From contig CAVOFT010000001.1 of assembly GCA_963695095.1 (NCBI GenBank), positions 3,296,001-3,360,000 of the forward strand: a stretch of DNA of 64,000 nucleotides, read 5' to 3'. This document shows positions 33,374 through 56,765 of this stretch, in pieces. The notes beneath the pieces are model-generated. The model was given only the letters and a program-made list of their open reading frames with translations. It did no database searches and was not told the origin of the DNA. The position numbers and the translations under genes were made by a program. Within the stretch, counting starts at the first letter, position 1, and each line of letters starts with the position of its first letter. The DNA comes from an uncultured bacterium (GTDB lineage: Bacteria > Krumholzibacteriota > Krumholzibacteriia > JACNKJ01).

Positions 33374-36208
33374 TTACTTGACGAGAATGATCTTCTGCAT
33401 CGCCTGCTCCGCGCTGCCGTCCGCACCGCGCAGCGAAAGCCGCGCCAGGTAGATGCCGCTGGCCAGGGGCTCGCCCGCTTCGTCGCGCGCCAGCCAGGTG
33501 GCGCGGTGCCCGCCGGAGCCCAGGGCCTCGCCGTCGAGCACCGTGGACACCAGGCGCCCCGAGGACTCGAAGATCTCCAGCGTCACCTCGCCCGCCGCCG
33601 GCAGGCTGAAGGTGAAGGTGGTCTGCGGATTGAAGGGATTGGGATAGGCCCCGGCAAAGACGAGGCCCACCGGCGCCGCACCCGCGCCGGTGCTCGGCGC
33701 CGTGAGCGCCGACTCGAAGGCGCCCAGGTCGGGCGCGCTGCCTGCGGGTCGAGGCCGCGCCTCGCCCGCCAGGTCCAGGGCCGGCGCCCCCGCCGGATCG
33801 CCGGCGCCCAGGCAGGGGCTGTCCTCCGCGAGCTGGAAGTCTCCGCCGGCCGCATCGACGAAGCGGGGATCGGCGCTGAGCTGCGTCGGCCCGCCGAGAC
33901 CCCCGGCCACCAGGCAGCTGCGCAGCTCGGCCCGCCCAGCAGCCAGGACCTCCGCCGCCACCGGGGCGAGATTGCCCCAGAGAATCGAGTTGCTGATCTC
34001 GGGCGCGGGCCCCGCGGCCGCGAGCAGCGCCAGGGCGCCGCCGCGCTCGCCGGCGCGGTTGCCCCAGCAGGTGAGCTGGCTGGCCGAGAAGCGGCCGCCA
34101 TCCACGCGCAGGGCGCCCCCCACCGGGGCCTCGTTGTCCGCGAAGAGGCAGTTGGTGACGAGCAGGTCCGCGCCCGGCGCTTCCCAGGCCAGGGCGCCGC
34201 CGCCGCGCAGGTCCCCGGGGCCGCTCTCCACCACGTTGCCGCTGAAGCGAAGGGCATCGAGCCCGGCGCTCACGCCCAGCAGCGCCATCGCGCCGCCGCG
34301 CAGCCCGGCGCGGTTGTCGAGGAAGCGGCAGCGGGCCGCGGCCAGCATGCCGCCGGCCTGACTGAGGGCTCCCCCTTCGGCGGCGGCCGTATTGGCCGCC
34401 AGCACGCAGCCGTCCAGCTCCACGCTGCCGCCGGCGACGTGCAGGGCGCCGCCGCTGCCGCCGCTGCGATTGTCGCGCAGCACGCAGCGCAGCATGCGCA
34501 GCGCGGCGTCCGTCCAGATCGCCCCGCCGCCGCCCTGCTCGGCCACGACCGTGCAGCCGGCCAGCTCGCAGTCCTCCAGGCTGAGGGCCACGCCCTCGCT
34601 GAGGATGGCGCCGCCGCGCTCGGCATCCAGGCCGTTCCAGAGGCTGAGACCCTGCAGCTTCAGGCGCGGCGATGCTCCAGGCGCTCCCGTGACGGCGAGC
34701 CGGAAGTGGCGCCGCTTGCCGCCCGCGTCCAGGATCGCGCTGCCGGCTTCGCTCGCAGCCCTGATCACCAGGTCCTTGCTTCCCGTGAAGAGCTCCGTGT
34801 TCATGCTGCCGCCGTAGCGACCGGGCAGGATCAGCACCGTGTCGCCGCTGGCGGCGGCGTTCAGGGCGAGCTGGATGGCGGCGAAGGGGCGCTCCGCGCT
34901 GCCGTCGCCCTCGTCGACGCCATGCTGGGCCGCGGCATCCACCCGCCAGAGCGGACCGGCGAAGGCCACGTCGATCCCGCCGGCGAGAAGGGCCAGGTCC
35001 TCCCGGCCGGCGGCATCGCGCACGCGCACCGTGGGCTGGTAGCGCCCGGGCCGGCGGAAGACGCGGCTGTGCGGCCCCGGCCCGGTGGCGTCCACCGTGC
35101 CGTCGCCGTCGAAATCCCACTCCCAGCTGCTCAGGCTCGACGCCGCCGTCAGCGAGCGATCCATGAACTGCGCCGCCTGCCCGCTCTGCAGGCGCTGGGC
35201 GGAGACCGCCATCGCCGCGAAGGGGCCCATGCCCTCGGGCGCGAAGGCGACCGAGCGCGTCCAGTCCCCGAAGCCGCAGCCGGCCACATAGGCGATGCGG
35301 AAGAAACCGCCCTCGCCCCAGCTTTCGCCCCAGCTGTTCTTGGCGATGAAGCAGCTCTGCGCGTCGTCGTAGCCGATGATCGCCACCGCGTGGTAGCCGA
35401 CCAGGGGGCCGGAGGCCCGGTAGACGCCCCCGGCGTAGGCGAAGAAGCCCTCGTGCACGGCCATGGTGGTGATCAGGGGGCCCTGCTCCCGCAAGGCGCG
35501 CTTGATCGCCAGGGGATCGGCAGCGGCGCAGACGAGGCCGGCCGGCGCAAAACGGAAGCGCCGGGCAGCGCTATCGGGACAGGCGAGCCGCTCGGTCGCG
35601 GCGTAGGGCAGACGGCCTTCCTCGAGGAGGCCCTCGCTCTCGGCCAGCCAGAGCGCGTCCTCGGGCCAGCCGCCCGCACAGCCCTGGCTGAGTCCGTAGT
35701 CGTCCAGGCAGGAGAGCAGCTGCTGCTCGGCGAGATCGAAGTCGGGCAGCTTTCCTCCCCGCAGCGCGCGCAGGAAGGCACTCTCGAGGGCGGCCGTGCT
35801 GGCGAAGGCCCACCCGGCCGCGCAGGGGCCCTGATCCCGCACCCCGCTGACGAAGTTGCCATTGGCCGCCCGCCAGTCGAGCCGGGCCGGCAGGCCGGCC
35901 TGGGCGCCCGGCCGCAGCGGGGCCGATGGATGCCGGGGGGGCTCGGGCCAGGGCCGCTCGCTCAGCCGCGCGCGCCGCTCGCTCGGGTCCAGGCGGAGCA
36001 TCCCGGTCTCGCCGGCCTGCCAGCGCAGCCCCTCACGCGCCAGGGCCGCCCGCAAGGTGCCCAGCTCCGCCTGCAGCGCCGCCCGGCGGCCGGCCCCCAG
36101 GGTGTCGGGCCCCAGCACCGGCGCCTGCGGCCCGGCCGCCCCGGTCGCCGCGGAGACAGCGAGGGCGATCAGCAGAGCGCAGAACCCAAGGGACCGTTGC
36201 CGGCGCAA
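33374..36208 (-). CDS. Secreted papain-like (C1) domain + PKD + beta-helix + FlgD-Ig CTD protein; catalytic Cys replaced by Gly
   Basis: AGGAG RBS and TTG start; LPARLDWR, QGPCAAGWAF, HAVAIIGY, KNSWGESWGEGGFFRI; PKD SWEWDFDGDG; YPNPFNP. Confidence 0.8.
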   Translation of the reverse strand: MRRQRSLGFCALLIALAVSAATGAAGPQAPVLGPDTLGAGRRAALQAELGTLRAALAREGLRWQAGETGMLRLDPSERRARLSERPWPEPPRHPSAPLRPGAQAGLPARLDWRAANGNFVSGVRDQGPCAAGWAFASTAALESAFLRALRGGKLPDFDLAEQQLLSCLDDYGLSQGCAGGWPEDALWLAESEGLLEEGRLPYAATERLACPDSAARRFRFAPAGLVCAAADPLAIKRALREQGPLITTMAVHEGFFAYAGGVYRASGPLVGYHAVAIIGYDDAQSCFIAKNSWGESWGEGGFFRIAYVAGCGFGDWTRSVAFAPEGMGPFAAMAVSAQRLQSGQAAQFMDRSLTAASSLSSWEWDFDGDGTVDATGPGPHSRVFRRPGRYQPTVRVRDAAGREDLALLAGGIDVAFAGPLWRVDAAAQHGVDEGDGSAERPFAAIQLALNAAASGDTVLILPGRYGGSMNTELFTGSKDLVIRAASEAGSAILDAGGKRRHFRLAVTGAPGASPRLKLQGLSLWNGLDAERGGAILSEGVALSLEDCELAGCTVVAEQGGGGAIWTDAALRMLRCVLRDNRSGGSGGALHVAGGSVELDGCVLAANTAAAEGGALSQAGGMLAAARCRFLDNRAGLRGGAMALLGVSAGLDALRFSGNVVESGPGDLRGGGALAWEAPGADLLVTNCLFADNEAPVGGALRVDGGRFSASQLTCWGNRAGERGGALALLAAAGPAPEISNSILWGNLAPVAAEVLAAGRAELRSCLVAGGLGGPTQLSADPRFVDAAGGDFQLAEDSPCLGAGDPAGAPALDLAGEARPRPAGSAPDLGAFESALTAPSTGAGAAPVGLVFAGAYPNPFNPQTTFTFSLPAAGEVTLEIFESSGRLVSTVLDGEALGSGGHRATWLARDEAGEPLASGIYLARLSLRGADGSAEQAMQKIILVK

Positions 36209-36441
36209 ACCTGCTCCTGACCGAGTTGTGGGGGGGTGTGTGCGTTGGGGAGTAGAGTGTAGCCTGAGTCGGGCCCTCGCGCGAGGGGCGCCGGGCGGGC
36301 AAGGGCAAAATACCGGTCCAGTCCTGTCGAAGCTGGAGATATCCAGTGTTGCAATTGAGAGATGTGGCAAGAAACAAGGCAATATCGGCCACTGCTCGGA
36401 GGCCGAGGGAGTGGGAAGGTAGCGGACAGCCCGGTCCGCAC

Positions 36442-37200
36442 TCATCGGAGGGCCTTGACCGCCAGGAAGACGAGGCGCCTGGCGTCGAGTTCGAAGGGCG
36501 CGCCCTCGTAATCGCCGAAGGCGCGGCAGTCGCCCAGGTTCTCGGCCTCGGCGAGGGCGCACAGCTCGCGCAGCGTGTAGAGCCGGATGCTGCTCCTGGC
36601 GCGCCGGCGCCGGCCGCCCTCCTTCGGGAAGAGGGTCCAATCCGTTTCCACGCGCCCCGCCAGCGCGTCGTAGCGGGTCTGGTTGGTGAGGATGACGCCG
36701 CCGCGCTCGCTCCACTGCTGGCGCGCGAAGCTGGGGAAGATCGTCTCCGGGCTGTGCAGGTCCATGGCAAGGACGCCGCCCGGCTTGAGCGCCCGGGCGA
36801 GCGCGCGCAGCTGGCGGCGATTGCCCTCTTCGTCGAAGTAGCCGAAGCTGCCCCACCAGCACAGCGCGAGATCGAAGCGTTCGCGCCAGCGGACGCGCCG
36901 CATGTCACCCTCCACCCAGTCCAGCTCGAGCCCCTCGGCCCGCGCCTTGCGCCGGCCGGCGGCGAGCAGGGCGGGCGTGGCGTCGAGCCCGGTCACCCGG
37001 TAGCCGCGGCGCGCGAACTCGCGGCCCAGGCGACCGTCCCCGCAGGGCGCGTCCAGCACGCGCAGGGGCGGCCGCAGGTCGAGCACGGCCTCGAGCAGGT
37101 CCACCGCGGGGCGGACCAGGGCCGGCTCGTCCATGGCCAGCTGGTAGCGCAGCCAGGGGCCGCTGAAGAAACGCTCCCACCACTCGCGCCGCTGGGCCAT
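36442..37200 (-). CDS. Class I SAM-dependent methyltransferase
   Basis: RVLDAPCGDGR, VTGLD, GDMR, SFGYF, LKPGGVL, SIRLY. Confidence 0.88.
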   Translation of the reverse strand: MAQRREWWERFFSGPWLRYQLAMDEPALVRPAVDLLEAVLDLRPPLRVLDAPCGDGRLGREFARRGYRVTGLDATPALLAAGRRKARAEGLELDWVEGDMRRVRWRERFDLALCWWGSFGYFDEEGNRRQLRALARALKPGGVLAMDLHSPETIFPSFARQQWSERGGVILTNQTRYDALAGRVETDWTLFPKEGGRRRRARSSIRLYTLRELCALAEAENLGDCRAFGDYEGAPFELDARRLVFLAVKALR

Positions 37201-38986: not shown

Positions 38987-40405
38987 TCAGCGCACCCGGA
39001 AATCCGCCGGCCGCAGACCCAGCTTCTTCAGCAGCCGGTAGATGGTCTGCCGGGGCAGGCTCGCCAGGCGCGCCACTTCCGTGATGTTGCCGCGGGCGGC
39101 GCGCAGCAGCATGGTGAAGTACTCGCGCTGGAATCGCAGCTCGGCAGCGGCCTTCGCCTGCTTGTAGGAAAAGCCGGCGTAGGTTTCCGGAGCGATGAGC
39201 TGGAAGTCCGAGGCGGCCAGGGTCCCGTCGCGCTGGCGGATGAGCGCATTCTCGATCACGGTGCCCAGCTCGCGCACGTTGCCCGTCCAGGGCTGGCGCT
39301 GGAGCAGGCGCAGGGCCTCGATCTCGAGCGCCGGCACCGGGCGCTTCATCTCCCTCGCCTTGAGGGCGATCAGATGGTGGGCGAGCGGCTCGATGTCCTC
39401 GACGCGCTCGCGCAGAGGAGGCAGGTGCAGGCGCAGACCCAGCTGGAGCAGCAGGGGCTGCAGGAGGCGCCGCTCGCGCACTTCCCGCACGGGATCGCGA
39501 CTGCTGCCGGCGACGATCCTGGCTCGCAAGGGAATCTCCTGCCGGCTGCCCAGGGGGCGGAAGCGGCGCTCGGTGAGCATCCGGCTCAGCTTGTGCTGCA
39601 CTTCCAGGCTCAGCTCGGCGATCCCATCGAGGTAGACGAGCCCCTGCCCCGCTTCCTGGAGGCGGCCGACGCGGCGGCGATGAGCGTCGGCGAAGGCGCC
39701 CTGCTCGTGGCCGAAGAGCTCGCTCTCCAGGAGCGTCGGCGAAAAGGCGGCGCAGTTGATCGCCAGGAAGGGCTCGCTGGAATGCGCCCCGAGGGCATGC
39801 AGGGCGCGCGCACAGAGCTCCTTGCCCGTGCCGCTCTCACCGGTGACCAGCGCCGGCCGATCGCAGGAGGCAAGGCGCCGGATCTCCTCGCGCACGCGGA
39901 CGATGGCCGGGCTGTTGCCCAGCAGCTCCACCGCAGCGCCCTCGCCCGGCGCCTGAATGCGGATGCGCCCGCGGCGCAGCTCCAGGGCCGTGCGCAGGAT
40001 CAGCTTGAGCTCCTCCTCGCTCCAGGTCTTGGAGATGTAGTTGACGGCGCCCAGGCGCATGGCGCGCACGACGTTTCTCGGCTCGATGTGTTCCGAGATG
40101 ATGATCACCGGGATCTCGGGGTAATTGATCTGTAGATCTTCCAGGAGGTCGAACCCGGCCAGGAAGCGATCGAACTGCAGGTCGAGCAGGATCACCTCGA
40201 CGCTGTGCCCCAGGAGGTACTGCTGGGCTTGGCCGGGGCTGGCCACGTAGTCCAGCTCGTAGTCGCTGTCGAGCGCCATGTGCATGTCCGTCAGGAAGGG
40301 CTCGGGGACATCGTCTACCAGGAGAATGCGCGCCTTGGCGGCATCGGCGCCGTCGGCGATTCTCAGCGCGGTGCCATGGACGCTGTCGCCGGGCTCGAGC
40401 CCCAT
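38987..40405 (-). CDS. NtrC-like response regulator (REC-AAA+-HTH) with degenerate AAA+ motifs
   Basis: REC ILLVDD/LLD/NYISK; GESGTGKE; ESELFGHEQGAFADA; YLDGI; WTGNVREL; Fis HTH GNITEVARLA..TIYRLL. Confidence 0.85.
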   Translation of the reverse strand: MGLEPGDSVHGTALRIADGADAAKARILLVDDVPEPFLTDMHMALDSDYELDYVASPGQAQQYLLGHSVEVILLDLQFDRFLAGFDLLEDLQINYPEIPVIIISEHIEPRNVVRAMRLGAVNYISKTWSEEELKLILRTALELRRGRIRIQAPGEGAAVELLGNSPAIVRVREEIRRLASCDRPALVTGESGTGKELCARALHALGAHSSEPFLAINCAAFSPTLLESELFGHEQGAFADAHRRRVGRLQEAGQGLVYLDGIAELSLEVQHKLSRMLTERRFRPLGSRQEIPLRARIVAGSSRDPVREVRERRLLQPLLLQLGLRLHLPPLRERVEDIEPLAHHLIALKAREMKRPVPALEIEALRLLQRQPWTGNVRELGTVIENALIRQRDGTLAASDFQLIAPETYAGFSYKQAKAAAELRFQREYFTMLLRAARGNITEVARLASLPRQTIYRLLKKLGLRPADFRVR

Positions 40406-40406
40406 C

Positions 40407-40661
40407 TCAGCGACCTCCCCGCCGGTTCGCGCGCTGGCGCTTGCCCTTGGGCCCCAGCTCCGGATAGAGGGGGATGATGGGGGCCAGTCGACTCTCGACG
40501 CCGACCGCTTCATGGGAAAGCGCCGCGATCCCCGCCCGCAGGAAGCAGCGCACCCAGCGATTGAGGGTGCGCGACGGCAGTCGCCGGGCCTGGGCCAGCG
40601 CGGGAATTTCCGCCCCGCGGAGAACTTCGAGAACGAGCTCGGCCTTGTCATTGAGTGTCAT
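40407..40661 (-). CDS. Small HTH protein (transposase-HTH/DUF1153-like)
   Basis: GGGGGA RBS; KAELVLEVLRG..ALAQARRLPSRTLNRWVRCFLRAGIAAL; stop abuts the regulator start. Confidence 0.6.
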   Translation of the reverse strand: MTLNDKAELVLEVLRGAEIPALAQARRLPSRTLNRWVRCFLRAGIAALSHEAVGVESRLAPIIPLYPELGPKGKRQRANRRGGR

Positions 40662-40888: not shown

Positions 40889-43800
40889 TTATTCCAGATT
40901 ACCCAGAAGGCGCAGGTGCAGCTGGAAACGGGCGCCGCCGAGGCTGCCCGGTCCGGGCAGGCAGGCAATCCGACCGCCGAAGCCGACGACCAGCTTGCGG
41001 GCGATCACCAGGCCGTCTCCCCCCAGGGGGACCTTGCTGCTTTCCCAGGGCTCGAAGATCCGCGCGAGCCTGCCGGGCGCGACGCCGGGACCGCTGTCCT
41101 CGAAGAGAAGGCGGAGCTGGTCGCCCTGCACTTCGGCCAGCAAGTGGAGGCGACGGGACGCGCCGGCGCTCATTGCCTCGAGCGCATTGGCAATGAGATT
41201 CTCGAAGACGATCGTGAGCTGCGCCGGCTCGAAGAACACCGGGGGCGCCTGTCCACCGAGGATGGAGAGGCTGAGTTCATCCAGTGGCGGCTCGGCCTGC
41301 AGGCAGCGTGCCAGGGCCGTCTGGAAGCAGGCCACCGGGTCCGCGCCCAGCCGCTCCGCCAGCCTCGCCTCGAGCCCACAAAGCCGGGGACCCAGGCGCT
41401 CCAGCTCCCGCGCCAGCCGGAGCCAGTCTTTCGGCCGCAGCTCCGTGCCGCTGGGCGCCAGCAGCGCTCGCAAGCTGCCGCGGCCACGGGGCTCGAGCTC
41501 TGCAGGCCAGGCTGCGTCCAGGGCTGCCAGGGGAGCGCGCAGGGCTGCCAGGTCGGCGGCGGCACGGCGGCTCGCTTCCGTTCCGCCGCGTGCGGCGAGC
41601 AGGCAGGCCTCGCGCAGGGCGCTGAAGCGCTCCCGCCTCCCCTCGCGGCAGCGCAGATCCTGCAGCAGCCCGAGCAGGAGGGCTCGGGGCTGCCAGGGCC
41701 CGATATCGGGCTCGCCCCGGCGCCGCCACCAGTAGCGTGGCCAGGGTAGCGCCAGGCCGAGCGCGAGGCCGAGAAGGGCCCCGAGACCCGGCCAGACGAA
41801 CCAATCCCGATCGCAGACGCCATGGCCCGAGCCCGGCGCGATCCGGAGCAGGAGCAGCTGGCCCATGCCGAGCAGGGCGACGCCGGACTTCCGCTGGCCG
41901 GGGGAGCAGAGCGCCAGCTCCCGGATGTCACGGGCACCGCCGGGACTCTCGTGCAGGCGCGCGCGCAGCACGAAGTGCCGATCCAGCAGCAGCAGGTCGT
42001 CGGGCAGGACGACCAGCAACTGGCTCGGGCCGTCCGCGATGAAATCCGCCGTGTGCAGGGCGAGCGGCCGCCCCGGCAGGGACCAACGGCCGCGTTCCTG
42101 GAGACGGCGGTCGTAGGCGATGAGCTCGCCCTCCCCGGCGCCGAAGCCGCCGGTCGCCAGCACGAACTCGTCGCTGCCGTCGCCGTCCAGATCGAGAACG
42201 GCCACATCCTGACAGGGCCAGGGCGGCTCGATCACCAAGGTCGGCGAGCCGTCCGCGGGACGATACTCCAGCCGTGTGTTCCCGGCCTGCCCTGACTGCA
42301 GGACCCTGAGCTCGCCCAGGACATGCTTGGCGACTTGCCTGAGCACGTGCCGCCGTAGACTCGAGCCAGGTTGGCCGCAGGCCTCGCCGCGCAGCACGCG
42401 GCCTTCGCCATCCAGATCGAGACACCAGCTCGTGCCGGCCGCCTGCAGACCCGGTGGCGGCCGCGGTCCCGCGCTCGCGGCCACGGAGACCAGCAGTTCG
42501 AGCTGTCCATCGGCGTCCAGATCGGCGAGGCCCTCCAGATGGGCGGGGCCGGAGAGATCGCGCTGCCACAGGATCCCCCGCGCCGGCGAGTAGGCGAGGA
42601 GGCCGCCAGGCGGGTCCAGGCCCGCCTGCGTGTAGGCGAACAAGAAGCCCTCGTCCTCCGGCAACGCGAGCATCTGATTGAAGCGCGGCGCCGGAAAGCC
42701 GGCAGCCGGCCGGGCGGCCGCGGGCAGCGCCAGCAGGCGTTCCGTTCCCGCCGCCTGCGTTGGGGATGCCAGCCGGAGCCTATGCAGCTCGAGAGCGTCG
42801 TCGGCCCAGCGGCTGAGCAGGATCTGCCTCCGCCCGCTGCCGTCCAGGTCCGCTGCGCCCAGGAGGCTCCAGCTGCCGGCACTGGCCAGGGGGATCGACT
42901 CGGACCCAGCCCGCCCTTGCGCCCTTTGCAGCAGCAGCCAGCTTGCCGAAGACGACTCGCTGTGGAGCAGGAGAGCGGCATTGTCCGCACTATCTCCCTC
43001 CAGGTCCGCGCAGAGCAGGTGGGCCGTCGCCGCCTCGAAGGTGATCGACTCCTGCACGCGGAAGTGATGCGTGGTCGGACCTCTCGGCTCAGTGCTGCCG
43101 GCGGGCCGAGCGGCAGCCAGAAGCGCCATCAGCGCGAGCAGGCCGGCCACTGCGCTGCGGGTTCTCGCGGTGGGCCTGCCCTCGTCCCGCATGGGCAGTC
43201 GCAGTCGCAGGGCATCGCCTTCCCGCCGAGCGTCGGCGAGCTCCGATTGCCGCTCGCTGAAGGCTGCCCAGCGCGCCGCCGTCGCCTCGCTGTCACTGCC
43301 GCCCGGCGTTTCGGCACTGAGCTGGAGGACATCCCGCTCTACAGCGAGACAGAGCCGCAGCGACACCCCGCCTTCCCGCGGAATGCGGGTCAAGCCGATC
43401 TCCACGAGGCCGCTGATCGCGTCTGCGAATTCTGCGAATCTCAGATTGAGACGACGCTGCGCGAGGTCGCCGGTCAATCGGAGCTCGAAAGGGACCCCGG
43501 CGGCGGCGGTCAGTCCCTGGAGCGTGGGCAGCAGCTGCAGCAGCTGGTCGAGCACCGGCTTCTGCGCCCGCAAGCGGACGCGCTCGGCGAGCGCCCGCGA
43601 GCATTGGCTCAAGTCCTGACAGCGATCTTGCAGTTCTGCGCCCTGCTCGATGGCGACTGCCCGCGGGTCCCCATCGGCTCGAAGCCGTCCCAGCGCCTCC
43701 CGCAGTGCGCTGGCGCCGGCGAGCACCCTCTCCGCTTCCGGGTCGTCGCCGAGAATGCGGCCTGCCAGCGGCGCCAGCTTGAGCAGTTCGCCCAGCGTCT

Positions 43801-45559
43801 CCTGCACCTCGGCCGCGGTGCCCAGCAGGTTCCTCCGGCGTTCGGCGGTGTCCTGATCCCGCAGGTGACCCACGCGCTTGGCCAGGCTGGGTAGCCGCGC
43901 GGAGAGACTGCCGCCATGGGCGAACAGGCGCAGACCCTCATCCAGCTCCTGCCACAGCGCCTCCTCCTGCTCGGGAGTCGGCAGCGCACTCGAGGCGGAG
44001 TCGCCCCAGCCGCCAGGCCGCAAGCTCCGCTGCTGCCGGCGCAGAAGCAGGACCAGCCAGAGGATCGCCAGCGCCGCAGCGGCGAGGAGGCCAATGAGCA
44101 GGCCGCGCAGGCGGCCCCATCCTGACTTCGGCTCCGTCCCTGTGACCGGGCTCGGTCCGGCAAAATCGGGATTGGGCTCGAGCCGCAGCATCCCGACCTG
44201 CTGCGGAGCCAGGCCGGCGACCGCGAGGCGCGGAATCCCGTCCCCGCCCCGCCAGCAGCGCAGCTGGATAAGGGGATTCACCAAGCGCTCCGTCAGGCCG
44301 CTTGGCCACAGGGCCAGCGGCACGAGCGCCCGGTCGCAGACCAGCAGGTCATCGCCGACGCGCAGGACGAGTTCCGGCCAGGTATCGCCGGTCAGGTCGG
44401 CTGCGCAGAGGGGCTGGACGGAAGGCGCGAACCACCAGCGCGCGCGCTCCTCGAGCCGGCTGTCGAGGAGAAGCAGGCTGCCGTCGGCCAGCCCGATCAG
44501 GACGTCCTCCGCGCCGTCGCCATCCAGATCCGCCACCAGGGGCGGGCCGGTCAGGCCACCTGGCAGCGGCCGCGCCCGCACCAGGAGCCCCGCGGCGTCG
44601 TAGAGGCGCAGCTCGTCAGCCTGGGAGCGGCTCAGGCTCGCCAGCACCAGGGGCAGCGCCTGCGCGCTCGGACGCAGGGGTTGCGTGGCGGCGAGGGTGG
44701 CGAACGCGCCCGCCTGCACGTTCAGCCGATCGCGGCCCGTCAAGTCGATCACCCGCCAGTAGGAATGGTCATCGCTGCCGCGCGCACAGGAGTCGCCATT
44801 GCCGCTGGCGTAGCTGGACAGGAAGAGCTCGCGCTGGGAGTCCCCATCCAGGTCGGCAAGATGATAGCCGAAGGTGTTGTTGGGCAGGCGGATCTGCGTG
44901 CGCAACACTCCCTGCAGGTCGTAGACCAGGAGCCCGCGCGGCGCGCTCCGCCAGTTGAAGCCCGCCATGGTCTGGACAAGGATGCGGCCCTCCGGGGCCA
45001 GGATCCGGCCCTCGAGATGGCTGCGCGGCAAGTGCTCGTGGCCCGAGCCCTCATGTCCCACCGCGATGTCGGCAAGCACGAGCAGCGTGTCGCACTGCAC
45101 CGTTCCCGTAGCGCCCCGCCGCAGGCGCTCTAGCCAGAAGCCCAGGCGCCGGTGCTCGCTGTCGTAGTGCCAGAACAGCAGCTCTTCGGCACCGTCCCCG
45201 TCCAGATCGCCACCGCCGGCCAGGCCGCCCTGATAGAGGGGAAAGTTCCACTGCCAGATCGGATTCTGGGGAGCCGCGAGTTCGAAGAGGAGGACGCTGC
45301 TCAGCCCTTCGCCCAGGGGTTCACGGCCGCTGGCCAGGAACTCGGGCGTCGCGTCGCCCAGGAGCTGGGCCAGCCGGAACTCCGTGGCGGCGAAGGAGCC
45401 CTCCTTGGCCAGGCGCCAGGGCAGGGTGGCGGGAGCCGGCAGGGCGTTGCGAGGCCTGTCATCGCCGACCGCCGAGTTCCCCCGGTGGGCCGGCAGGAAC
45501 AGGAGCAGGCAGAGGCAGGCCGACAGCAGGGGCCGGCGAGGCGGCGTCGTCCGCAGCAT
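40889..45559 (-). CDS. Tandem double FG-GAP sensor / histidine-kinase-like protein
   Basis: SP; DLDGDG repeats; TM; eroded kinase-like region; internal hydrophobic segment; second DLDG set; TM; HATPase_c with N-box ENLIANA, G1 EDSGPGV, F-box IFEP, GDGL. Confidence 0.75.
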   Translation of the reverse strand: MLRTTPPRRPLLSACLCLLLFLPAHRGNSAVGDDRPRNALPAPATLPWRLAKEGSFAATEFRLAQLLGDATPEFLASGREPLGEGLSSVLLFELAAPQNPIWQWNFPLYQGGLAGGGDLDGDGAEELLFWHYDSEHRRLGFWLERLRRGATGTVQCDTLLVLADIAVGHEGSGHEHLPRSHLEGRILAPEGRILVQTMAGFNWRSAPRGLLVYDLQGVLRTQIRLPNNTFGYHLADLDGDSQRELFLSSYASGNGDSCARGSDDHSYWRVIDLTGRDRLNVQAGAFATLAATQPLRPSAQALPLVLASLSRSQADELRLYDAAGLLVRARPLPGGLTGPPLVADLDGDGAEDVLIGLADGSLLLLDSRLEERARWWFAPSVQPLCAADLTGDTWPELVLRVGDDLLVCDRALVPLALWPSGLTERLVNPLIQLRCWRGGDGIPRLAVAGLAPQQVGMLRLEPNPDFAGPSPVTGTEPKSGWGRLRGLLIGLLAAAALAILWLVLLLRRQQRSLRPGGWGDSASSALPTPEQEEALWQELDEGLRLFAHGGSLSARLPSLAKRVGHLRDQDTAERRRNLLGTAAEVQETLGELLKLAPLAGRILGDDPEAERVLAGASALREALGRLRADGDPRAVAIEQGAELQDRCQDLSQCSRALAERVRLRAQKPVLDQLLQLLPTLQGLTAAAGVPFELRLTGDLAQRRLNLRFAEFADAISGLVEIGLTRIPREGGVSLRLCLAVERDVLQLSAETPGGSDSEATAARWAAFSERQSELADARREGDALRLRLPMRDEGRPTARTRSAVAGLLALMALLAAARPAGSTEPRGPTTHHFRVQESITFEAATAHLLCADLEGDSADNAALLLHSESSSASWLLLQRAQGRAGSESIPLASAGSWSLLGAADLDGSGRRQILLSRWADDALELHRLRLASPTQAAGTERLLALPAAARPAAGFPAPRFNQMLALPEDEGFLFAYTQAGLDPPGGLLAYSPARGILWQRDLSGPAHLEGLADLDADGQLELLVSVAASAGPRPPPGLQAAGTSWCLDLDGEGRVLRGEACGQPGSSLRRHVLRQVAKHVLGELRVLQSGQAGNTRLEYRPADGSPTLVIEPPWPCQDVAVLDLDGDGSDEFVLATGGFGAGEGELIAYDRRLQERGRWSLPGRPLALHTADFIADGPSQLLVVLPDDLLLLDRHFVLRARLHESPGGARDIRELALCSPGQRKSGVALLGMGQLLLLRIAPGSGHGVCDRDWFVWPGLGALLGLALGLALPWPRYWWRRRGEPDIGPWQPRALLLGLLQDLRCREGRRERFSALREACLLAARGGTEASRRAAADLAALRAPLAALDAAWPAELEPRGRGSLRALLAPSGTELRPKDWLRLARELERLGPRLCGLEARLAERLGADPVACFQTALARCLQAEPPLDELSLSILGGQAPPVFFEPAQLTIVFENLIANALEAMSAGASRRLHLLAEVQGDQLRLLFEDSGPGVAPGRLARIFEPWESSKVPLGGDGLVIARKLVVGFGGRIACLPGPGSLGGARFQLHLRLLGNLE

Positions 45560-45637
45560 GGCGCCCCATTCGATGGGTGACCCATCGAGTCTATCAGCTT
45601 TCATCTTTAGGAGATAGCGCTAATTCGAGGATCATCA

Positions 45638-47968
45638 TCATGAATCAGAGGCGGCGACCTGCCGCGAGCGCTCCGGCCCTTCGGCGAGGATGAACGCCAG
45701 CTGCACGCCGCCGTCCTGGCAGCGCAGGCCGCAGTGCAGGCGCGCGGCCGCCGCCGCGATGCCGAGCCGCTCCAGGTCGGCCGCGCCCGGAGCCGATCCT
45801 GCCAAATCGTCCCGGCAAGCGACCAGGAGCTGCGTGGGCTCGCGCCGCGCCTGCAGCAGGAGCACTCCCGCTCCGCCGCGGGCGCGCTGCCGGAAGAGTT
45901 GCCCGAGCAGGACGAAGAGCTGATCGGCCTCATCCGGATTGGCGACTGGCGCCTCGTCCCGCCAGTCGCCGGCGAGATCGAGGCGAAGCGAGAGTCCAAC
46001 GGCGGCGAAGCGGGTGAGCAGGAGGCCGATGAAAGCAGCGGGCGGGACGGCGAGTCGCGCGTCAACCTGCAGGTGCAGGGCCTCGATTCCGGCGCTGATC
46101 GCCCGCGCCGCCCGTTCCGCGGCGGCCAGCTCGTTGGCAGGCGGCAAGCGGTCGGGAGCGAGAACAGAGGCGAGCTGCGCGAGCCGCTCGGCGTCCGCCT
46201 GGAAGGCCCGGCAGCGCAGCTTGTCCCAGGCTCCGGCCGCGGCCAGGTCGCCGATCTGCCGCAGGATGGGCAGCGTCTGCAACCGAAAGGCCGCCGCCGC
46301 CGCCCGCAGGCGGGGGAAATAGCGCGCCGCCGTGTCCCGCTCCCCCTGGCTGTTGCGCAGGGCGAAGATCAGGCTGTCGAGCTGGCCACGGGCGGCGGCA
46401 CTATGGCGAAAGCCACGGAGCTGGTCGCGCAGCGGGCGCCAGCACTCCGCCGCCGTCGCCGCGCCGGCCGCGGACCCTCCCCGCTTCAGCCAGAGCGACC
46501 CTGCGAGCGAACCGATGGCCAGGCCTGCGACAGCTGCGATGAGCGCCAGAAGCCAGCGCGCCGGCTCGCCCCGCGCTTGCGCGGCCGCCCCCGGCAGCAG
46601 CTCGAGCAGCAGCGAAGCCCCCGGCTGACCGCGACTCATGGCGACGAAGCGCCGACCCTCCGCGCTGACCCAGCCGGTCGCTTGCTGAGGCAGCTGATGC
46701 GAGTAGAGCAACTCGCCGTCCCAGAGCGCCAGCGGCGCCAGCGTCTGGTCGAAGAGGCCGAGCCGATTGCCGACCGCGATCAGGAGATCCGGCCGGCCAC
46801 GGCCGCGCAGATCCACCGCCGCCAGTGGGCCCACCGCGGCCGCGAAGCGCCAGTCGGCGAGCAACTGCAGATCGCGATCGAGGAGCAGCAAGCGGCCGTC
46901 CGTGAGGCCGAGCAGCAATTCATCGCTGCCATCGCGGTCCCAGTCGACGACCAGACTGCGCCAGAGGGCCGCCGGCAGGCTACGCTCGCGCAGGAGGCGA
47001 CCGTCCGCGGCGTAGATGCGCAGGGGACAGTGCTCACCCTCGCCGAGCAGCAGCGCCGCAATGGCGGGGGCCTGCCCCGCGATGCGCATGGGCTGGGTCT
47101 GGGCCTCGCTGAAGGCGCCGCCCGCTTCGACGTCAAGCAGGCGGCGGGCGTCGGCATCGATCACCCGCCAGTAGGAGTGGCAGTCGTCCTCGCCGGGCAG
47201 CCTCTGGCCGTTGCAGGTGGCATGCGTGCCGAGGAAGAGCTCCGGCCGGCCGTCGCCGTCGAGGTCGGCCAGCGCCGTGATGTAGACATTCGGGGCGGCG
47301 GCGGCGTGCCGGCGCAGACGACCCTGCGCATCGAGCAGGAGCGGGCCGCGGGGCGCCAGGCCAAAGCCCGCGACAGGCAGGGCGACCCAGAGATCCGCCG
47401 CCGCATCGAGCCGCCCCGACCCGTGCATCTGCGGGGCGAACTCGGCGCCGGCGCCGGCAGTCGGCACTGGAATCGCCTCGCTGCGCCAGAGCGTCTCGGT
47501 CCGCAATCCACCGGGGCCGAGGCGCAGGGCGTCCGCCCGGAGCCGGAAGCCGCCTTCGTCGCGGATCCAGAAGAGCAGCTCTTGGCGTCCGTCGCCGGCC
47601 AGCAGATCCGCCGTGCCGGCCAGGCCGCCCTGGCCGGCGACGAAGTTCCATTGCTTGAGAGGACGCGACACCGAGCCCTCCAGCCGCGAAGCCAGCACGA
47701 AGCTGTGGCTGAGCGTATCGGGGCCTGCCCCGCAGGTGACGAGCTCCGGTGCGCCGTCGCCATCGAGATCGAGGACGAAGAGCTCACTCCCCCGCAGGGC
47801 CAGGCAGGTCTCCAGGGTCAAGGGCAGGGAATCCCGCGCGGGCAGCCCGACGGGCAGGGGCGCCGGCTCGCTGGTCACCCTGTGCGGCACGAGCGCGAGC
47901 AGGAGCAGGGCGACGCCCAAGCGGCGGACAACAGCGCAGCGCCTGCCATTGGGGATCCGGGTGCGCAT
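45638..47968 (-). CDS. FG-GAP repeat membrane sensor with degenerate kinase-like cytoplasmic domain
   Basis: SP; DLDGDGAPELV, DLDGDGRPELFL, DWDRDGSDELL; TM; paralog of first module of the downstream gene (DDxHSYWRVID, APRG, QWNF). Confidence 0.75.
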   Translation of the reverse strand: MRTRIPNGRRCAVVRRLGVALLLLALVPHRVTSEPAPLPVGLPARDSLPLTLETCLALRGSELFVLDLDGDGAPELVTCGAGPDTLSHSFVLASRLEGSVSRPLKQWNFVAGQGGLAGTADLLAGDGRQELLFWIRDEGGFRLRADALRLGPGGLRTETLWRSEAIPVPTAGAGAEFAPQMHGSGRLDAAADLWVALPVAGFGLAPRGPLLLDAQGRLRRHAAAAPNVYITALADLDGDGRPELFLGTHATCNGQRLPGEDDCHSYWRVIDADARRLLDVEAGGAFSEAQTQPMRIAGQAPAIAALLLGEGEHCPLRIYAADGRLLRERSLPAALWRSLVVDWDRDGSDELLLGLTDGRLLLLDRDLQLLADWRFAAAVGPLAAVDLRGRGRPDLLIAVGNRLGLFDQTLAPLALWDGELLYSHQLPQQATGWVSAEGRRFVAMSRGQPGASLLLELLPGAAAQARGEPARWLLALIAAVAGLAIGSLAGSLWLKRGGSAAGAATAAECWRPLRDQLRGFRHSAAARGQLDSLIFALRNSQGERDTAARYFPRLRAAAAAFRLQTLPILRQIGDLAAAGAWDKLRCRAFQADAERLAQLASVLAPDRLPPANELAAAERAARAISAGIEALHLQVDARLAVPPAAFIGLLLTRFAAVGLSLRLDLAGDWRDEAPVANPDEADQLFVLLGQLFRQRARGGAGVLLLQARREPTQLLVACRDDLAGSAPGAADLERLGIAAAAARLHCGLRCQDGGVQLAFILAEGPERSRQVAASDS

Positions 47969-48091: not shown

Positions 48092-49945
48092 CTACTTGAG
48101 CAAGAGCAGCTTCTGGCGGCCGAGATCGCGGTCGTCCAGCCGCAGGCGGGCGAAGTAGACGCCGCTGGCGACGCGGGCGCCGCGGCTGTCGCGGCCGTCC
48201 CAGCGGGCGAAGCCCGGGCCGGCGGGCAGCGCCTCGTCGAGCAGCGTGCGCAGCGCCCGCCCCTGGGCGTCGAGGATCTCCAGCCTGACGCGGCCGCCTG
48301 CGTTCAACTCGTAGCGCAGTCGCGTGCTCGGATTGAAGGGATTGGGGTGCGGCGCGAGCAGACGCCCCGCCCCAGCGTCCGGGAGCTCAGGCGCGGCGGT
48401 CCAGCCGAAGCCGGCGTCGCTGATCACCTGCCCGAGATAGGGACCCTGGGCAAGCGGCGCCGTGGGCGGCTGCGGATCCTCGCCCGAGCGAATGTACTCC
48501 TCGATGCTGTCAACGGCGATATGGCCCCAGCTCTGGCTGCTGAGGTCCGCGATGACGAGGAAGACGGTCTGCCCCGCGAGGCTGGAGAGGTTCCACAGCC
48601 GCGGCGTGAGGACATGGCTGTCCATGCCCGTCTCCGAGAAGAGGATGCGCTCGTCGCTGGCGCGCACCAAGGCCACGAAGGTGAGGGCGGGCTTGTTGCC
48701 GCCGCCGACGAGCAGCTTCATGCGATCGCCGCTCACGGTGAAGTCGTCGCTGCGGATCAGGCCGGTGGGCACATTGCCCTGGATGCGACCGGGCGGATAG
48801 ATGTCCGGGTCGTGGAAGAACTCATAGGTGGCGACATAGCTGTTGCCTTGCATCCCCGTGGGCACGCCGTTGCGCTCGTAGGGATTGTCGCCCCAGGTCG
48901 GCTGGAAGTTGAAGGCGGTGCCGAAGACGGTCGTCCAGTTGTCGGCGAAGCCTTCGTGGTAGCTGATCGTGGGCTCGCCCCCGGGCTCATCGAAGCTCAC
49001 ATCCCCGAAGCGGAAGAAGAAGCGGGTGCCGTCGCGCAGCTCAAGGCCGCGATGCAGACTCCAGAGGTCGGGCTCGCCGGGAATGCTCGTGATCTCGTTG
49101 GCATGGCCTTCGTCGATGTAGGTGCGATTGGCCTTGGACCAGGCGCCGGTGAAGCTGGGACTGGCGATGTGGCTGATCTGCTGCTCGCCCCCTTCCGTGA
49201 AGAACAGGTGGTAGTAGCCCCCGCGCTTCACGAGCTGCACGCTTTCGAGAACATTCCTGCTATCGTTGACGAAGAAGGCGCCGAGGTCCGTCCAGGGGCC
49301 CAGGTTGTTGCTGATGGCATGGCTGATGCCGCCCATGCTGTCCGGCGCGACGCTGACCGAGTTGAGCAGATACCACTGGGAACTGCCGTCTTCGTGGAAG
49401 AGCTCCGGATCGCGGCAGTTGGACCACTGGCCCGGGCTCCAGATCGCCCAGCTGCCGGGGCGGTACAGCGGGTTGCCCGCCCAGCGATACCAGTGGAAGA
49501 GATCGTAGGACGAGGCGAGGCCCGTTTGCTGCGTCAGGCCCCAGTTGGAGCCCGTGTAGTACATCAGCCAGTCGCCGCTGTTGGGATCGTCGATGATCTT
49601 CGGCGCCCAGACGAACTCCGACTCCCAGGCCGGCGGATTGGGGATGTCGACGGATAGGACGCTGTCCTGGCGCGTCCAGTGCCTGAGGTCGGGGCTCGTG
49701 ATGTGCCCGAACCACTGCTCCTTGCGCAGGTAGTGGCCGTCGGGCGGCAGGCTCTGGATGTAGAACACGTGATAGATGCCGTTGTGCTTGACCACCGCGT
49801 GGTCCTTGCACTGGATGCCCATCGTCTCGAAGAAGAAGGGGCGCTCGAAGTCGGCGAGCAGGAGGGCATCGGCTGCGGAAGTCCGAAGCATGAGAACGGC
49901 AAGGGCCCCTAGGAGAACCCGCGCGGCCATGGGGAAACGTGGCAT
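48092..49945 (-). CDS. Secreted GH32/clan GH-J-like five-bladed propeller glycosidase with beta-sandwich and FlgD-Ig CTD
   Basis: KDH..YHVFY, GHITSPDLRHW, WAP, RDP, ESV; levanase-type module LLVGGG..WGHIAVDSI; PNPFNP. Confidence 0.7.
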   Translation of the reverse strand: MPRFPMAARVLLGALAVLMLRTSAADALLLADFERPFFFETMGIQCKDHAVVKHNGIYHVFYIQSLPPDGHYLRKEQWFGHITSPDLRHWTRQDSVLSVDIPNPPAWESEFVWAPKIIDDPNSGDWLMYYTGSNWGLTQQTGLASSYDLFHWYRWAGNPLYRPGSWAIWSPGQWSNCRDPELFHEDGSSQWYLLNSVSVAPDSMGGISHAISNNLGPWTDLGAFFVNDSRNVLESVQLVKRGGYYHLFFTEGGEQQISHIASPSFTGAWSKANRTYIDEGHANEITSIPGEPDLWSLHRGLELRDGTRFFFRFGDVSFDEPGGEPTISYHEGFADNWTTVFGTAFNFQPTWGDNPYERNGVPTGMQGNSYVATYEFFHDPDIYPPGRIQGNVPTGLIRSDDFTVSGDRMKLLVGGGNKPALTFVALVRASDERILFSETGMDSHVLTPRLWNLSSLAGQTVFLVIADLSSQSWGHIAVDSIEEYIRSGEDPQPPTAPLAQGPYLGQVISDAGFGWTAAPELPDAGAGRLLAPHPNPFNPSTRLRYELNAGGRVRLEILDAQGRALRTLLDEALPAGPGFARWDGRDSRGARVASGVYFARLRLDDRDLGRQKLLLLK

Positions 49946-54851: not shown

Positions 54852-54896
54852 CTGGTCCATCGTGTGCTCCACCACAACCCCGCGCAGGTGTGCTGC

Positions 54897-56765
54897 ATGA
54901 CCCTTGGTCGGATCCGGTGCCTGCGGCTCTGCGCTGCTTTGCTCGCCACGCTCTTCGCGCTGGCGGCTCCGCTGGCCGGATCCGCCGCCGCTGCGCTGGA
55001 TATCGATTTCGAGCAGCCCTACTTCGTCGAAGCGCTCGGGGTGCAGTGCAAGGACCACGCCCTGGTCAAGGTCGATGGCGTCTACCACGTCTTCTACATT
55101 CACAGTTTTCCCCCGAATCCGCCCGACTATCTGCGCAGCGAGCGCTGGCTGGGCCACCTCACGAGCGAGGATCTGCGCCACTGGTCGCGGCAGGACAGCA
55201 TCCTGCCCGTCAGCGAGACACCTCCGGGAGGCTGGGAAGGCAAGTTCATCTGGGCGCCCAAGCTGATCCAGGATCTCGACACCAGTGCCTGGTTCCTCTT
55301 CTACACCGGGGTCAGCCAGTCCGTTGCCCAGCAGACGGGCCTTGCCTACGGCTGGAACCTCTTCGACTGGACGCGCTGGCCCCTGAATCCCATCTACCGC
55401 CCCGGCGCCTGGTCGAACTGGACCGCCGGCACCTGGGCCAACTGCCGCGATCCCGAGGTCTTCCACGAGACCGGCGACCTCTACTACTACTTGCTCAACA
55501 CCGCCAGCACGGCCGCAGGGCTGGGCGCGATCTCCTTCGCTCGCAGCCAGAACCTGGCCAGCTGGTCCGATCAGCCGCCGCTCTTCGTGAACAACAGCGC
55601 CGCCGTGCTCGAGAGCCCCCAGCTGGTCAAGAACGACGGGCTCTATCACCTCTTCTTCACGGAGGAGACGGTGCAGGGCACCAGCCACATCACGGCGCCC
55701 ACCCTGACCGGCGCCTGGAGCAAGGACAACCTCGCGATCATCGACGCCGGCAATGCGCCCGAGATCTCGGATCTCGGCGATGAGGTCGTCTTCAGCCGCC
55801 ACAACGCGCTGGCGTCCCCCGACGGTCCGATCTTCTACTATCGCTTCGACCACATCGCGCTGGATGGTCCCGGCGGCGCCGCTCAGATCAGCCCCCTCGG
55901 CCCCGCGCTGCCCGGCTGGAGCGTGGTCTTCGGCTCGGCCTTCGACAATCAGCCGACCTGGGGCGACAACCCCCATCAGCGCGGCGCCGGGCACAGCAAC
56001 CTGGAGGGCAACAGCTACCTGGCCACCTACGAGGACTTCCCGGCCCCCGTGGAGGGCGAGGAAGGCAACACCCAGGGGGTCCTGACCGTGGGCCTGCTGC
56101 GCGGCGCTCCCTTCACGATTGCGGAGAATCGCCTGCAGCTCCTGGTCGGCGGCGGCGGCAATGTCGAGCGCGTGTTCGTAGGCCTCGTGCGCTCGAGCGA
56201 CGAGACGCTGCTCTTCCGCGAGACCGGCGAGAACAGCCACGCGATGAGCCTGCGCCTCTGGGACTGCAGCACGCTCATCGGCGAGGAGGTCTACCTGGTC
56301 ATCGCCGACCTCTCGTTCACGAGCTGGGGCTGCATCAGCACCGACGCCATTCGCGAGTACCATGAAGACGGCGAGGATCCCTTCCCCCCCAGCCAGCCCA
56401 ACCTGGCCGGTCCCCTGCTCGAGGATGTGCTCGCCGCGGCCGGCTACGGGCAGACCGGCGTGGCCGGGTCGGCCCCGCTTGCGGTCGCCGCGCGGCTGCT
56501 CGCGCCCTTCCCCAACCCCTTCAATCCGAGCACGCGCCTGCGCTACGAGCTGGCCCGCCCGGGGCGCGTGGAGATCGACATCCTCGATGCCACCGGCCGC
56601 CGGCTGCGCCGCCTGCTGATCGCCAGCCTGCCAGCGGGTCCGGGTTTCGTGACCTGGGATGGGCGCGACGAGGCCGGCCACAGCCTCCCCAGCGGGGTCT
56701 ATCTGGCGCGCCTCACGCGAGACGGTGCCCTCGCCGGTACGCGCAAGCTCCAGCTCATCCGCTAG
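54897..56765 (+). CDS. Secreted GH32-like glycosidase with FlgD-Ig CTD (paralog of 48092..49945)
   Basis: QCKDHA.VK..G.YHVFYI, WAPK, NCRDPE, LESPQL, QPTWGDNP, LLVGGG, PNPFNP; colinear with paralog. Confidence 0.72.
   Translation: MTLGRIRCLRLCAALLATLFALAAPLAGSAAAALDIDFEQPYFVEALGVQCKDHALVKVDGVYHVFYIHSFPPNPPDYLRSERWLGHLTSEDLRHWSRQDSILPVSETPPGGWEGKFIWAPKLIQDLDTSAWFLFYTGVSQSVAQQTGLAYGWNLFDWTRWPLNPIYRPGAWSNWTAGTWANCRDPEVFHETGDLYYYLLNTASTAAGLGAISFARSQNLASWSDQPPLFVNNSAAVLESPQLVKNDGLYHLFFTEETVQGTSHITAPTLTGAWSKDNLAIIDAGNAPEISDLGDEVVFSRHNALASPDGPIFYYRFDHIALDGPGGAAQISPLGPALPGWSVVFGSAFDNQPTWGDNPHQRGAGHSNLEGNSYLATYEDFPAPVEGEEGNTQGVLTVGLLRGAPFTIAENRLQLLVGGGGNVERVFVGLVRSSDETLLFRETGENSHAMSLRLWDCSTLIGEEVYLVIADLSFTSWGCISTDAIREYHEDGEDPFPPSQPNLAGPLLEDVLAAAGYGQTGVAGSAPLAVAARLLAPFPNPFNPSTRLRYELARPGRVEIDILDATGRRLRRLLIASLPAGPGFVTWDGRDEAGHSLPSGVYLARLTRDGALAGTRKLQLIR

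Follow-up and report, generated by a model that had tools for sequence, protein, structure and literature searches.

The two neighboring genes at 40889..45559 and 45638..47968 on the minus strand of a 64,000-nt stretch (hereafter the window, in whose numbering all positions are given) from the genome of an uncultured Krumholzibacteriota bacterium (G000) raise the question of how three receptors built like sensor kinases can signal when none of them appears to hold a complete histidine kinase active site. One gene encodes module A and the other a fusion of modules B and C. An earlier note, made from the letters of the stretch alone, had proposed that the losses in the three modules are complementary and that the modules might assemble into a hetero-oligomeric receptor integrating several extracellular ligands. 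Our analysis, as far as sequence can tell, confirmed that this partition between the histidine (His) and the ATPase is real and conserved, and the three modules probably divide the job of one enzyme and work only as a team.

The three modules share one layout, in which a signal or transmembrane (TM) segment and an FG-GAP ectodomain are followed by a TM helix and ~280 aa of cytoplasmic sequence, as the note had described, and its open reading frame (ORF) coordinates and all the motifs it named were verified at their positions. As a family, FG-GAP repeats form integrin-like, seven-bladed propellers that bind Ca2+, as the ectodomains here may do. The ectodomains contain 3, 2, and 2 DxDxDG motifs compared with ~0.02 in shuffled sequences (0/2000 reached these counts), and Pfam FG-GAP_3 scored above the cut-off in both ORFs. 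Since the ectodomains are 41% (A/B), 31% (B/C), and 28% (A/C) identical, A, B, and C are paralogous. Module A (776 aa; 45638..47968) has a signal peptide, a propeller, a TM helix, a predicted four-helix bundle with His522 in the motif LRGFRH (46403..46405), and a degenerate GHKL domain, or pseudo-CA (45683..46048), that has lost the N-box Asn, the G1 glycines, and G2 and has kept the G1 Asp720. The B-C fusion (1556 aa; 40889..45559, with an alternative ATG at 45604) starts with module B (43193..45559), in which a signal peptide, propeller, TM helix, and His bundle (His548 in LRLFAH, 43916..43918) precede a heavily eroded pseudo-CA with the N, G1, F, and G2 boxes gone. Module C (40889..43192) has a propeller, a TM helix, a shortened bundle in which Cys1304 of LQDLRC stands at the His position (41648..41650), and an intact CA domain whose boxes span 41009..41203 (N 41183-41203, G1 41084-41101, F 41048-41059, and G2 41009-41020). 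All these features lie on the minus strand. C has no His from the TM helix to the N box, and ENLIANA, EDSGPGV, IFEP, and GDGL are restricted to C, again as first described; the Pfam domain HATPase_c was detected in C only (E 5e-12).

Protein searches yielded 3 full-length homologs of A (63-69% identity) and 4 B-C fusions (55-61%), and a representative search added one further fusion, the most distant of the five (44%), together with three A-like pieces of the cytoplasmic part; for P0002-4, P0008-11, P0018, and P0169-72, linkage was taken from matching contig sizes (22851, 269238, 15681, 13632, and 8154). The His was kept in 6/7 A-types and in 6/6 B-types, that is, in every fusion, and in 0/7 C-types, where the position reads C, C, L, L, L, R, and S. 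The N-box Asn was kept in 0/8 A-types, 0/6 B-types, and 7/7 C-types, and DxGxG and G2 were retained only in C-types, with the G1-box Asp persisting without DxGxG in 7/8 A-types and gone from B. Profile probabilities against the bundle and the CA domain of intact kinases were 98.5-98.8 and 19-72 for A, 96 and 29 for B, and 49 and 99.9 for C; with single window sequences, the bundle profile gave 90% for A, 12% for B (with the His in register), and 0.4% for C. Pattern scans found no close loci, returning at least 8 generic FG-GAP loci on metagenome contigs and none on genome contigs. P0021 and P0167 represent a 305-aa A-like cytoplasmic protein that starts at a Met and has no propeller, His, or ATP boxes, P0021 being found on 8 contigs.

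The most distant instance was found in G003, a genome of the same family as G000 and of a different genus. There, two adjoining genes with 22-30% identity (~26%) to the window encode an A-like protein that has the His but lacks the ATP boxes and a C-like protein in which the reverse holds. That the same His-only and ATPase-only pair exists in so distant a genome argues that the partition is not decay. The complementary losses are thus borne out in close homologs and in this pair of another genus, against an intact parent family. The homolog and synteny comparison that the earlier note had called for showed a conserved partition, and its own counter-scenario, in which the homologous modules are all intact and this copy is decaying, did not hold, as A-, B-, and C-type homologs keep the losses. 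Its expectation of a conserved His stood for the homologs with the exception of one A-like protein, P0021.

The parent family consists of many single-gene kinases. In each, the propeller and the TM helix are joined to a His close to the membrane, an extended helical stretch, and a CA domain that is complete. Among 62 member proteins, the His was present in 60/62, the N-box Asn and the G1 DxGxG in 62/62, and G2 in 61/62 members; 30 of these had been seeded on the His motif, and the count was therefore repeated on genomic loci (GTDB) chosen by a full-length profile. These loci were the best-scoring profile matches and one earlier set, so that weaker, possibly split, members may have been left out, and they gave 104 distinct segments: 92 complete members outside split loci and 12 others (3 cut off at contig ends or gaps, 4 fragments of 2 genes that appear frameshifted, 2 kinases unrelated to the family, and 3 split modules). 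The His was found in 92/92 complete members and the full combination of N, G1, and G2 in 90/92, the remaining 2 missing the N-box Asn only. Across the 145-aa helical domain of 44 genome-derived intact members, the sole invariant residue is the His to which His522 of A aligns. Tandem pairs with both copies intact occur in four genomes, at L075 (G116:C17), L076 (G169:C55), L077 (G173:C206), and L078 (G171:C292), and are a possible precursor state of the split. We also observed single members missing only the His (P0041 and P0101) or only the N-box Asn (L102 and L104), which may be further, independent half-kinases, and, at L041:7426-10959 (G111), an intact kinase followed after its CA domain by a segment of ~350 aa with FG-GAP-like motifs, as if a second module had begun fusing.

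The intact tandem duplicates of G116, G169, G171, and G173, as well as two single genes that appear frameshifted (L071 and L133), would fit a neutral decay of redundant tandem copies. This explanation is largely refuted and we consider it very improbable, as the full-length homologs (3 A, 5 B-C, and the G003 pair) are uninterrupted ORFs and the mirror-image losses are fixed across two genera. Free decay of A in particular is disfavored because its pseudo-CA is as conserved as its bundle, the identity among A homologs being 55-67% in the dead CA and 58-69% in the bundle.

Phylogenies place the modules within this history. A FastTree analysis of whole modules gave support values of 99 for A+B, 98 for C, and 86 for A+B+C, and an IQ-TREE analysis of the ectodomains only gave 97, 79, and 95, respectively. 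A, B, and C derive from the family of single-gene FG-GAP-propeller sensor kinases. In the simplest history, an intact propeller kinase would have duplicated in tandem, the copies would then have lost opposite halves of the active site (the state seen in G003), the His-only gene would have duplicated once more, and B, one of the His-only copies, would have fused to the ATPase-only C. The stages are all seen in genomes: single gene, intact tandem pair, complementary pair, and triple with fusion.

The fusion itself is made by a third hydrophobic helix (residues ~803-821; 43097..43153) that links B to C and looks like a former signal peptide of C. With this helix, the predicted topology is consistent, both cytoplasmic parts being inside. 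The B-C fusion is kept in 5 other proteins, and in 6/6 fusions the hydrophobic helix is followed by small residues, with A-x-A-like sites in the window, where signal peptidase might cleave. An assembly or stop-loss artefact was considered for B-C and is ruled out by the five further fusions, in which the internal Met790 is a Leu.

What kind of domain carries the His? AlphaFold2 (AF2) predicted that the cytoplasmic parts of both A (pLDDT 90.9) and C (pLDDT 89.9) form a four-helix bundle and, after it, a GHKL fold, the first helix of C being broken at the former His site; the alignments behind both models were dominated by intact kinases, so that the model of A is partly guided. In fold searches, the best matches were histidine kinase CA domains, with Z 11.9 for A and 18.6 for C. 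The sequence-only support for A is weaker (HHalign 19-72%; an Atlas second match of 0.93 to an HATPase_c cluster), and the AF2 model and the fold search support a GHKL fold for its C-terminal part. A GHKL CA domain with N, G1, F, and G2 boxes is present in C only, A and B keeping the fold or a trace of it without the boxes.

The expectation of HisKA-type kinases, which the earlier note had brought to the locus, was not borne out: of the structure it anticipated, the GHKL fold is predicted for A and C, and the His domain is a predicted four-helix bundle in place of a HisKA DHp. A two-helix DHp with an H-box (HisKA, HisKA_2, HisKA_3, or HWE) was not recognized: Pfam HisKA and HPt had no match at E<=1 on 6 intact members, HisKA_3 appeared at E 0.13 in only 2/44 bundles, and the HisKA profile gave no significant match (HHalign 8-12%). 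An origin of the bundle from a HisKA hairpin duplicated in tandem was unsupported (HHalign 2-12%). The structural matches of the bundle, FAT domains at Z 11 and CheA P1 (1tqg) at Z 9.7, are in a range common for helical bundles, and a PDB sequence search with the bundle alone returned generic helical proteins only. The alignment to LvrB (8vc9) covers the His region and what comes after it (E 5e-6; Z 11.0, rmsd 7.5), and Atlas clusters with 16-24% HEF_HK (PF19191) members scored 0.83-0.84, in the chance range; HEF_HK itself was absent from the Pfam results on the 6 intact members and from the 25 of 39 families listed for bundles. A kinship with HEF_HK and LvrB is a lead only, and LvrB is receiver-controlled, unlike the modules here.

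We infer a phospho-acceptor role of the His because of its invariance, the CA domain, and the partner regulators of the family. The lack of a HisKA or HPt match, and the PDK/BCK chains that came up in both fold searches, would also suit a His that is a structural or metal ligand, in a family of GHKL ATPases or PDK-like Ser/Thr kinases where C is the enzyme and A and B are non-catalytic co-receptors. We find this improbable: histidine kinase CA domains score highest (Z 18.6), many intact members adjoin Asp-bearing NtrC-type regulators (31 distinct receivers), and there is one conserved His only, the second ligand being absent.

If the His accepts phosphate, where would the phosphate go? The array is followed by a gene for an NtrC-like response regulator (472 aa; 38987..40405, minus strand) with a receiver, a degenerate AAA+ domain, and a Fis-type helix-turn-helix (HTH). 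The receiver keeps the acidic pocket, the phospho-Asp (Asp75, 40181-40183), and the conserved Lys, the Asp being found in 12/13 proteins of its clade. The AAA+ domain reads GAFADA instead of GAFTGA, has a Gly for the Walker B Glu, and has no arginine finger; in the clade as a whole, the Thr of GAFTGA is missing from 13/13 proteins and the arginine finger from 12/13, and the Walker B Glu is replaced by Gly in 8/13. The gene rpoN is present in G000. From these motifs, the regulator is probably an atypical NtrC-like protein that is independent of sigma-54. L145-L149 and the window protein at 38987-40405 form a family-specific NtrC-like regulator clade with degenerate AAA+ domains.

Receiver phylogeny ties this regulator to the kinases: of the 45 receivers in G000, that of the regulator is the only one to cluster with the 31 whose genes lie next to intact family kinases (support 94 on 136 columns). 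The regulator was found in 6/208 genomes (G000, G002, G003, G006, G007, and G008). Its Asp is kept in the 3/3 of these that have a family kinase, namely G000 (split and intact), G003 (split only), and G008 (intact only), and is replaced in the 3/3 in which no family kinase was found, by Glu in G002, Ala in G006, and Ser in G007, with 112/112, 128/128, and 134/134 kinase candidates scored in these three. In G003, the regulator retains both Asp and Lys though no family kinase other than the split pair was detected. Small and related as the set of genomes is, this Asp pattern gives the strongest indication of a delivery of phosphate by the split pair, and it also suggests that the regulators of G002, G006, and G007 are pseudo-receivers that are still conserved. 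The earlier note had the array signal to the adjacent regulator; receiver phylogeny and the loss of the Asp without kinases speak for that partner, and adjacency by itself is weak evidence, since five relatives have the regulator at this locus without the array.

In those five relatives (G002, G003, G006, G007, and G008), an upstream GH32-like gene is followed by the regulator with no kinase array. The array thus occupies a place at which, in relatives, nothing separates the GH32-like gene from the regulator, and around the G003 pair no NtrC-type regulator was found within the 20 kb examined; both would be expected of a split kinase whose main target is a different receiver, the neighboring regulator being cognate by ancestry only. 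We give this little credence, given that the other 44 receivers of G000 do not group with the family partners and that genomes in which no family kinase was found have also lost the Asp.

On balance, we consider a phosphotransfer in trans, with the regulator as its end point, probable. C would bind ATP and, inside a membrane complex, phosphorylate the conserved His of A and/or B; the phosphate would pass from there to Asp75, and the regulator would then act without sigma-54 or ATP hydrolysis. Several observations weigh against this trans model. The His domain matches no known DHp or HPt family, and a single-chain four-helix bundle could mean a monomeric parent, for which a trans reaction would be less automatic. 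Both trees came with long-branch warnings. The Asp correlation compares 3 with 3 related genomes, and in G003 (~1120 contigs) 150/174 candidates were scored. The array is absent beside the regulator in 5/5 relatives that have the latter, and the G003 split pair and regulator are on different contigs. Finally, the A-like P0021 has neither His nor ATP boxes, and an intact paralog with His, N, G1, and G2 lies elsewhere in G000 (C1:3511765-3514242), outside the window, and could explain why the Asp is kept.

The last two points lead to another model, a pseudokinase network in which the intact paralog at C1:3511765 phosphorylates the regulator, A and B serve as phosphate sinks, phosphatases, or relay points, and C is a DivL-like ATP-binding modulator. 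The 17-kb stretch around this paralog was found to contain no NtrC-type regulator, in G008 the Asp-bearing regulator coexists with an intact kinase only, P0021 lacks the His, and DivL and RetS/GacS are described precedents for such modulators (PMC12189002). We nonetheless judge this model unlikely, although it deserves consideration: in G003, where no intact member was found, both the split pair and the Asp are kept, and independent modulators are not expected to keep exactly complementary losses in neighboring genes at ~26% identity. The trans model, with C as the catalytic partner of A and B, thus remains the one we favor.

Split kinases are not without precedent. In Streptococcus pyogenes, FasB and FasC are adjacent membrane kinase-like paralogs for which two-hybrid analysis is reported to show heterodimers only; His246 of FasC is required while the FasC kinase domain is dispensable, and the model of the authors is that the CA domain of FasB phosphorylates the FasC His and then the response regulator receives the phosphate (PMC12675982). 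As that system is described, candidate histidines remain in FasB and cis phosphorylation is not excluded, whereas here C has no His at the site and A and B have no ATP boxes. The Fas sensors have six TM helices and a ComE-like regulator, in contrast to the three propeller ectodomains, two His donors, B-C fusion, and four-helix His domain seen here. CheA3 and CheA4 of Rhodobacter sphaeroides carry phospho-acceptor and ATP-binding activities on separate proteins that must meet (PMC3591291), and the same split of activities is reported for Hik36 and Hik43 of Synechocystis (PMC7656254). The likeness to split CheAs may extend to a His in a helical bundle (CheA P1 against the A bundle, Z 9.7, which is not decisive for helical bundles). 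As presented in those accounts, the CheAs are cytoplasmic chemotaxis kinases and were split by domain loss, whereas whole receptor paralogs here keep domains and sensors and have lost only catalytic residues.

Other partial likenesses concern single modules. Spo0B/ChpT-type histidine phosphotransferases are soluble and take their phosphate from a receiver. A and B resemble them in joining a His domain to a dead CA domain, but among the 45 receivers of G000 there is no family relay receiver except the regulator. C resembles DivL, in which a CA domain likewise persists without the His (4q20 matches C at Z 16.4); DivL differs in that no complementary His-only twin figures in its description (PMC12189002). 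In its motifs, the regulator resembles VpsR, an NtrC-like protein that is reported to lack the residues for sigma-54 binding and ATP hydrolysis and to act with sigma-70 (PMC6158489). The putative phospho-acceptor His and the ATP-binding domain are on different modules, as in a split kinase and not in one polypeptide module as in class I; the His of B and the CA domain of C do share an ORF, with two TM helices and a propeller between them. No CheW-like domain was matched, and every module has its own TM helix and ectodomain, in contrast to CheA-type class II kinases. By the features tested, the array belongs to neither the HisKA nor the CheA family, and by analogy it would function like a split kinase. 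New are the mirror-image loss of catalytic residues between receptor paralogs that are otherwise whole and have separate ectodomains, the presence of two His donors for a single catalytic module, the joining of B to C, and the unclassified His domain of the parent family. Neither the family nor the locus was described in the open-licence PMC and bioRxiv main texts searched, and supplementary genome-survey tables could list such proteins.

The surroundings of the array were also explored. An 84-aa ORF (40407..40661, minus strand), labeled HTH-like by eye, overlaps the start of the regulator; it has a same-position homolog in G002 (37% identical) and no match in an NCBIfam search. A promoter and terminator scan gave no signal exceeding shuffles, and among the 20 families listed by a repeat search only FG-GAP coding repeats and paralog similarity were prominent. 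The ORFs at 48092-49945 and 54864-56765 encode two divergent paralogous secreted proteins, both kept at this locus in five relatives, the first with a GH32/GH43-like propeller and a FlgD-Ig tail (Pfam). A long ORF at 33374-36862 appears, by eye, to encode a papain-like domain, repeats of the PKD and beta-helix types, and a tail of the FlgD-Ig type, its putative catalytic Cys motif being CAAGWAF.

Studies of natural split kinases have so far dealt mostly with cytoplasmic CheAs, and the split HisKA/HATPase pairs listed by Amin et al. were, in that account, predicted only, from domain counts (PMC3591291). FasBC is one-sided, whereas here both halves are inactivated in sequence, each with its own extracellular sensor. 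Sensor kinases of this family are probably miscounted as His-less, since Pfam misses the His domain (~90 intact kinases examined). The intact parent family provides a built-in control, and two soluble domains of ~280 aa and one receiver suffice to test whether phosphorylation is obligately in trans, whether two inputs gate the response, and whether it has the ultrasensitivity that split kinases are predicted to show. Taking all the elements jointly, we tentatively propose, as a possibility well short of an even prospect, that the parent kinases form a class of their own, not described before, with the phospho-His on a single-chain four-helix bundle and not on a dimeric DHp. The locus would then be an obligate multi-receptor logic gate, with C as the catalytic module and A and B as alternative His donors, each with its own propeller; the B-C polyprotein would perhaps be cut by signal peptidase after membrane insertion, fixing a 1:1 ratio, and the output would go to an NtrC-like regulator that has a dead ATPase, needs no sigma-54, and turns into a pseudo-receiver once the kinases are lost. 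If this were true, the receptor would resemble the kinase/pseudokinase receptor pairs of eukaryotes, built from histidine kinase parts.

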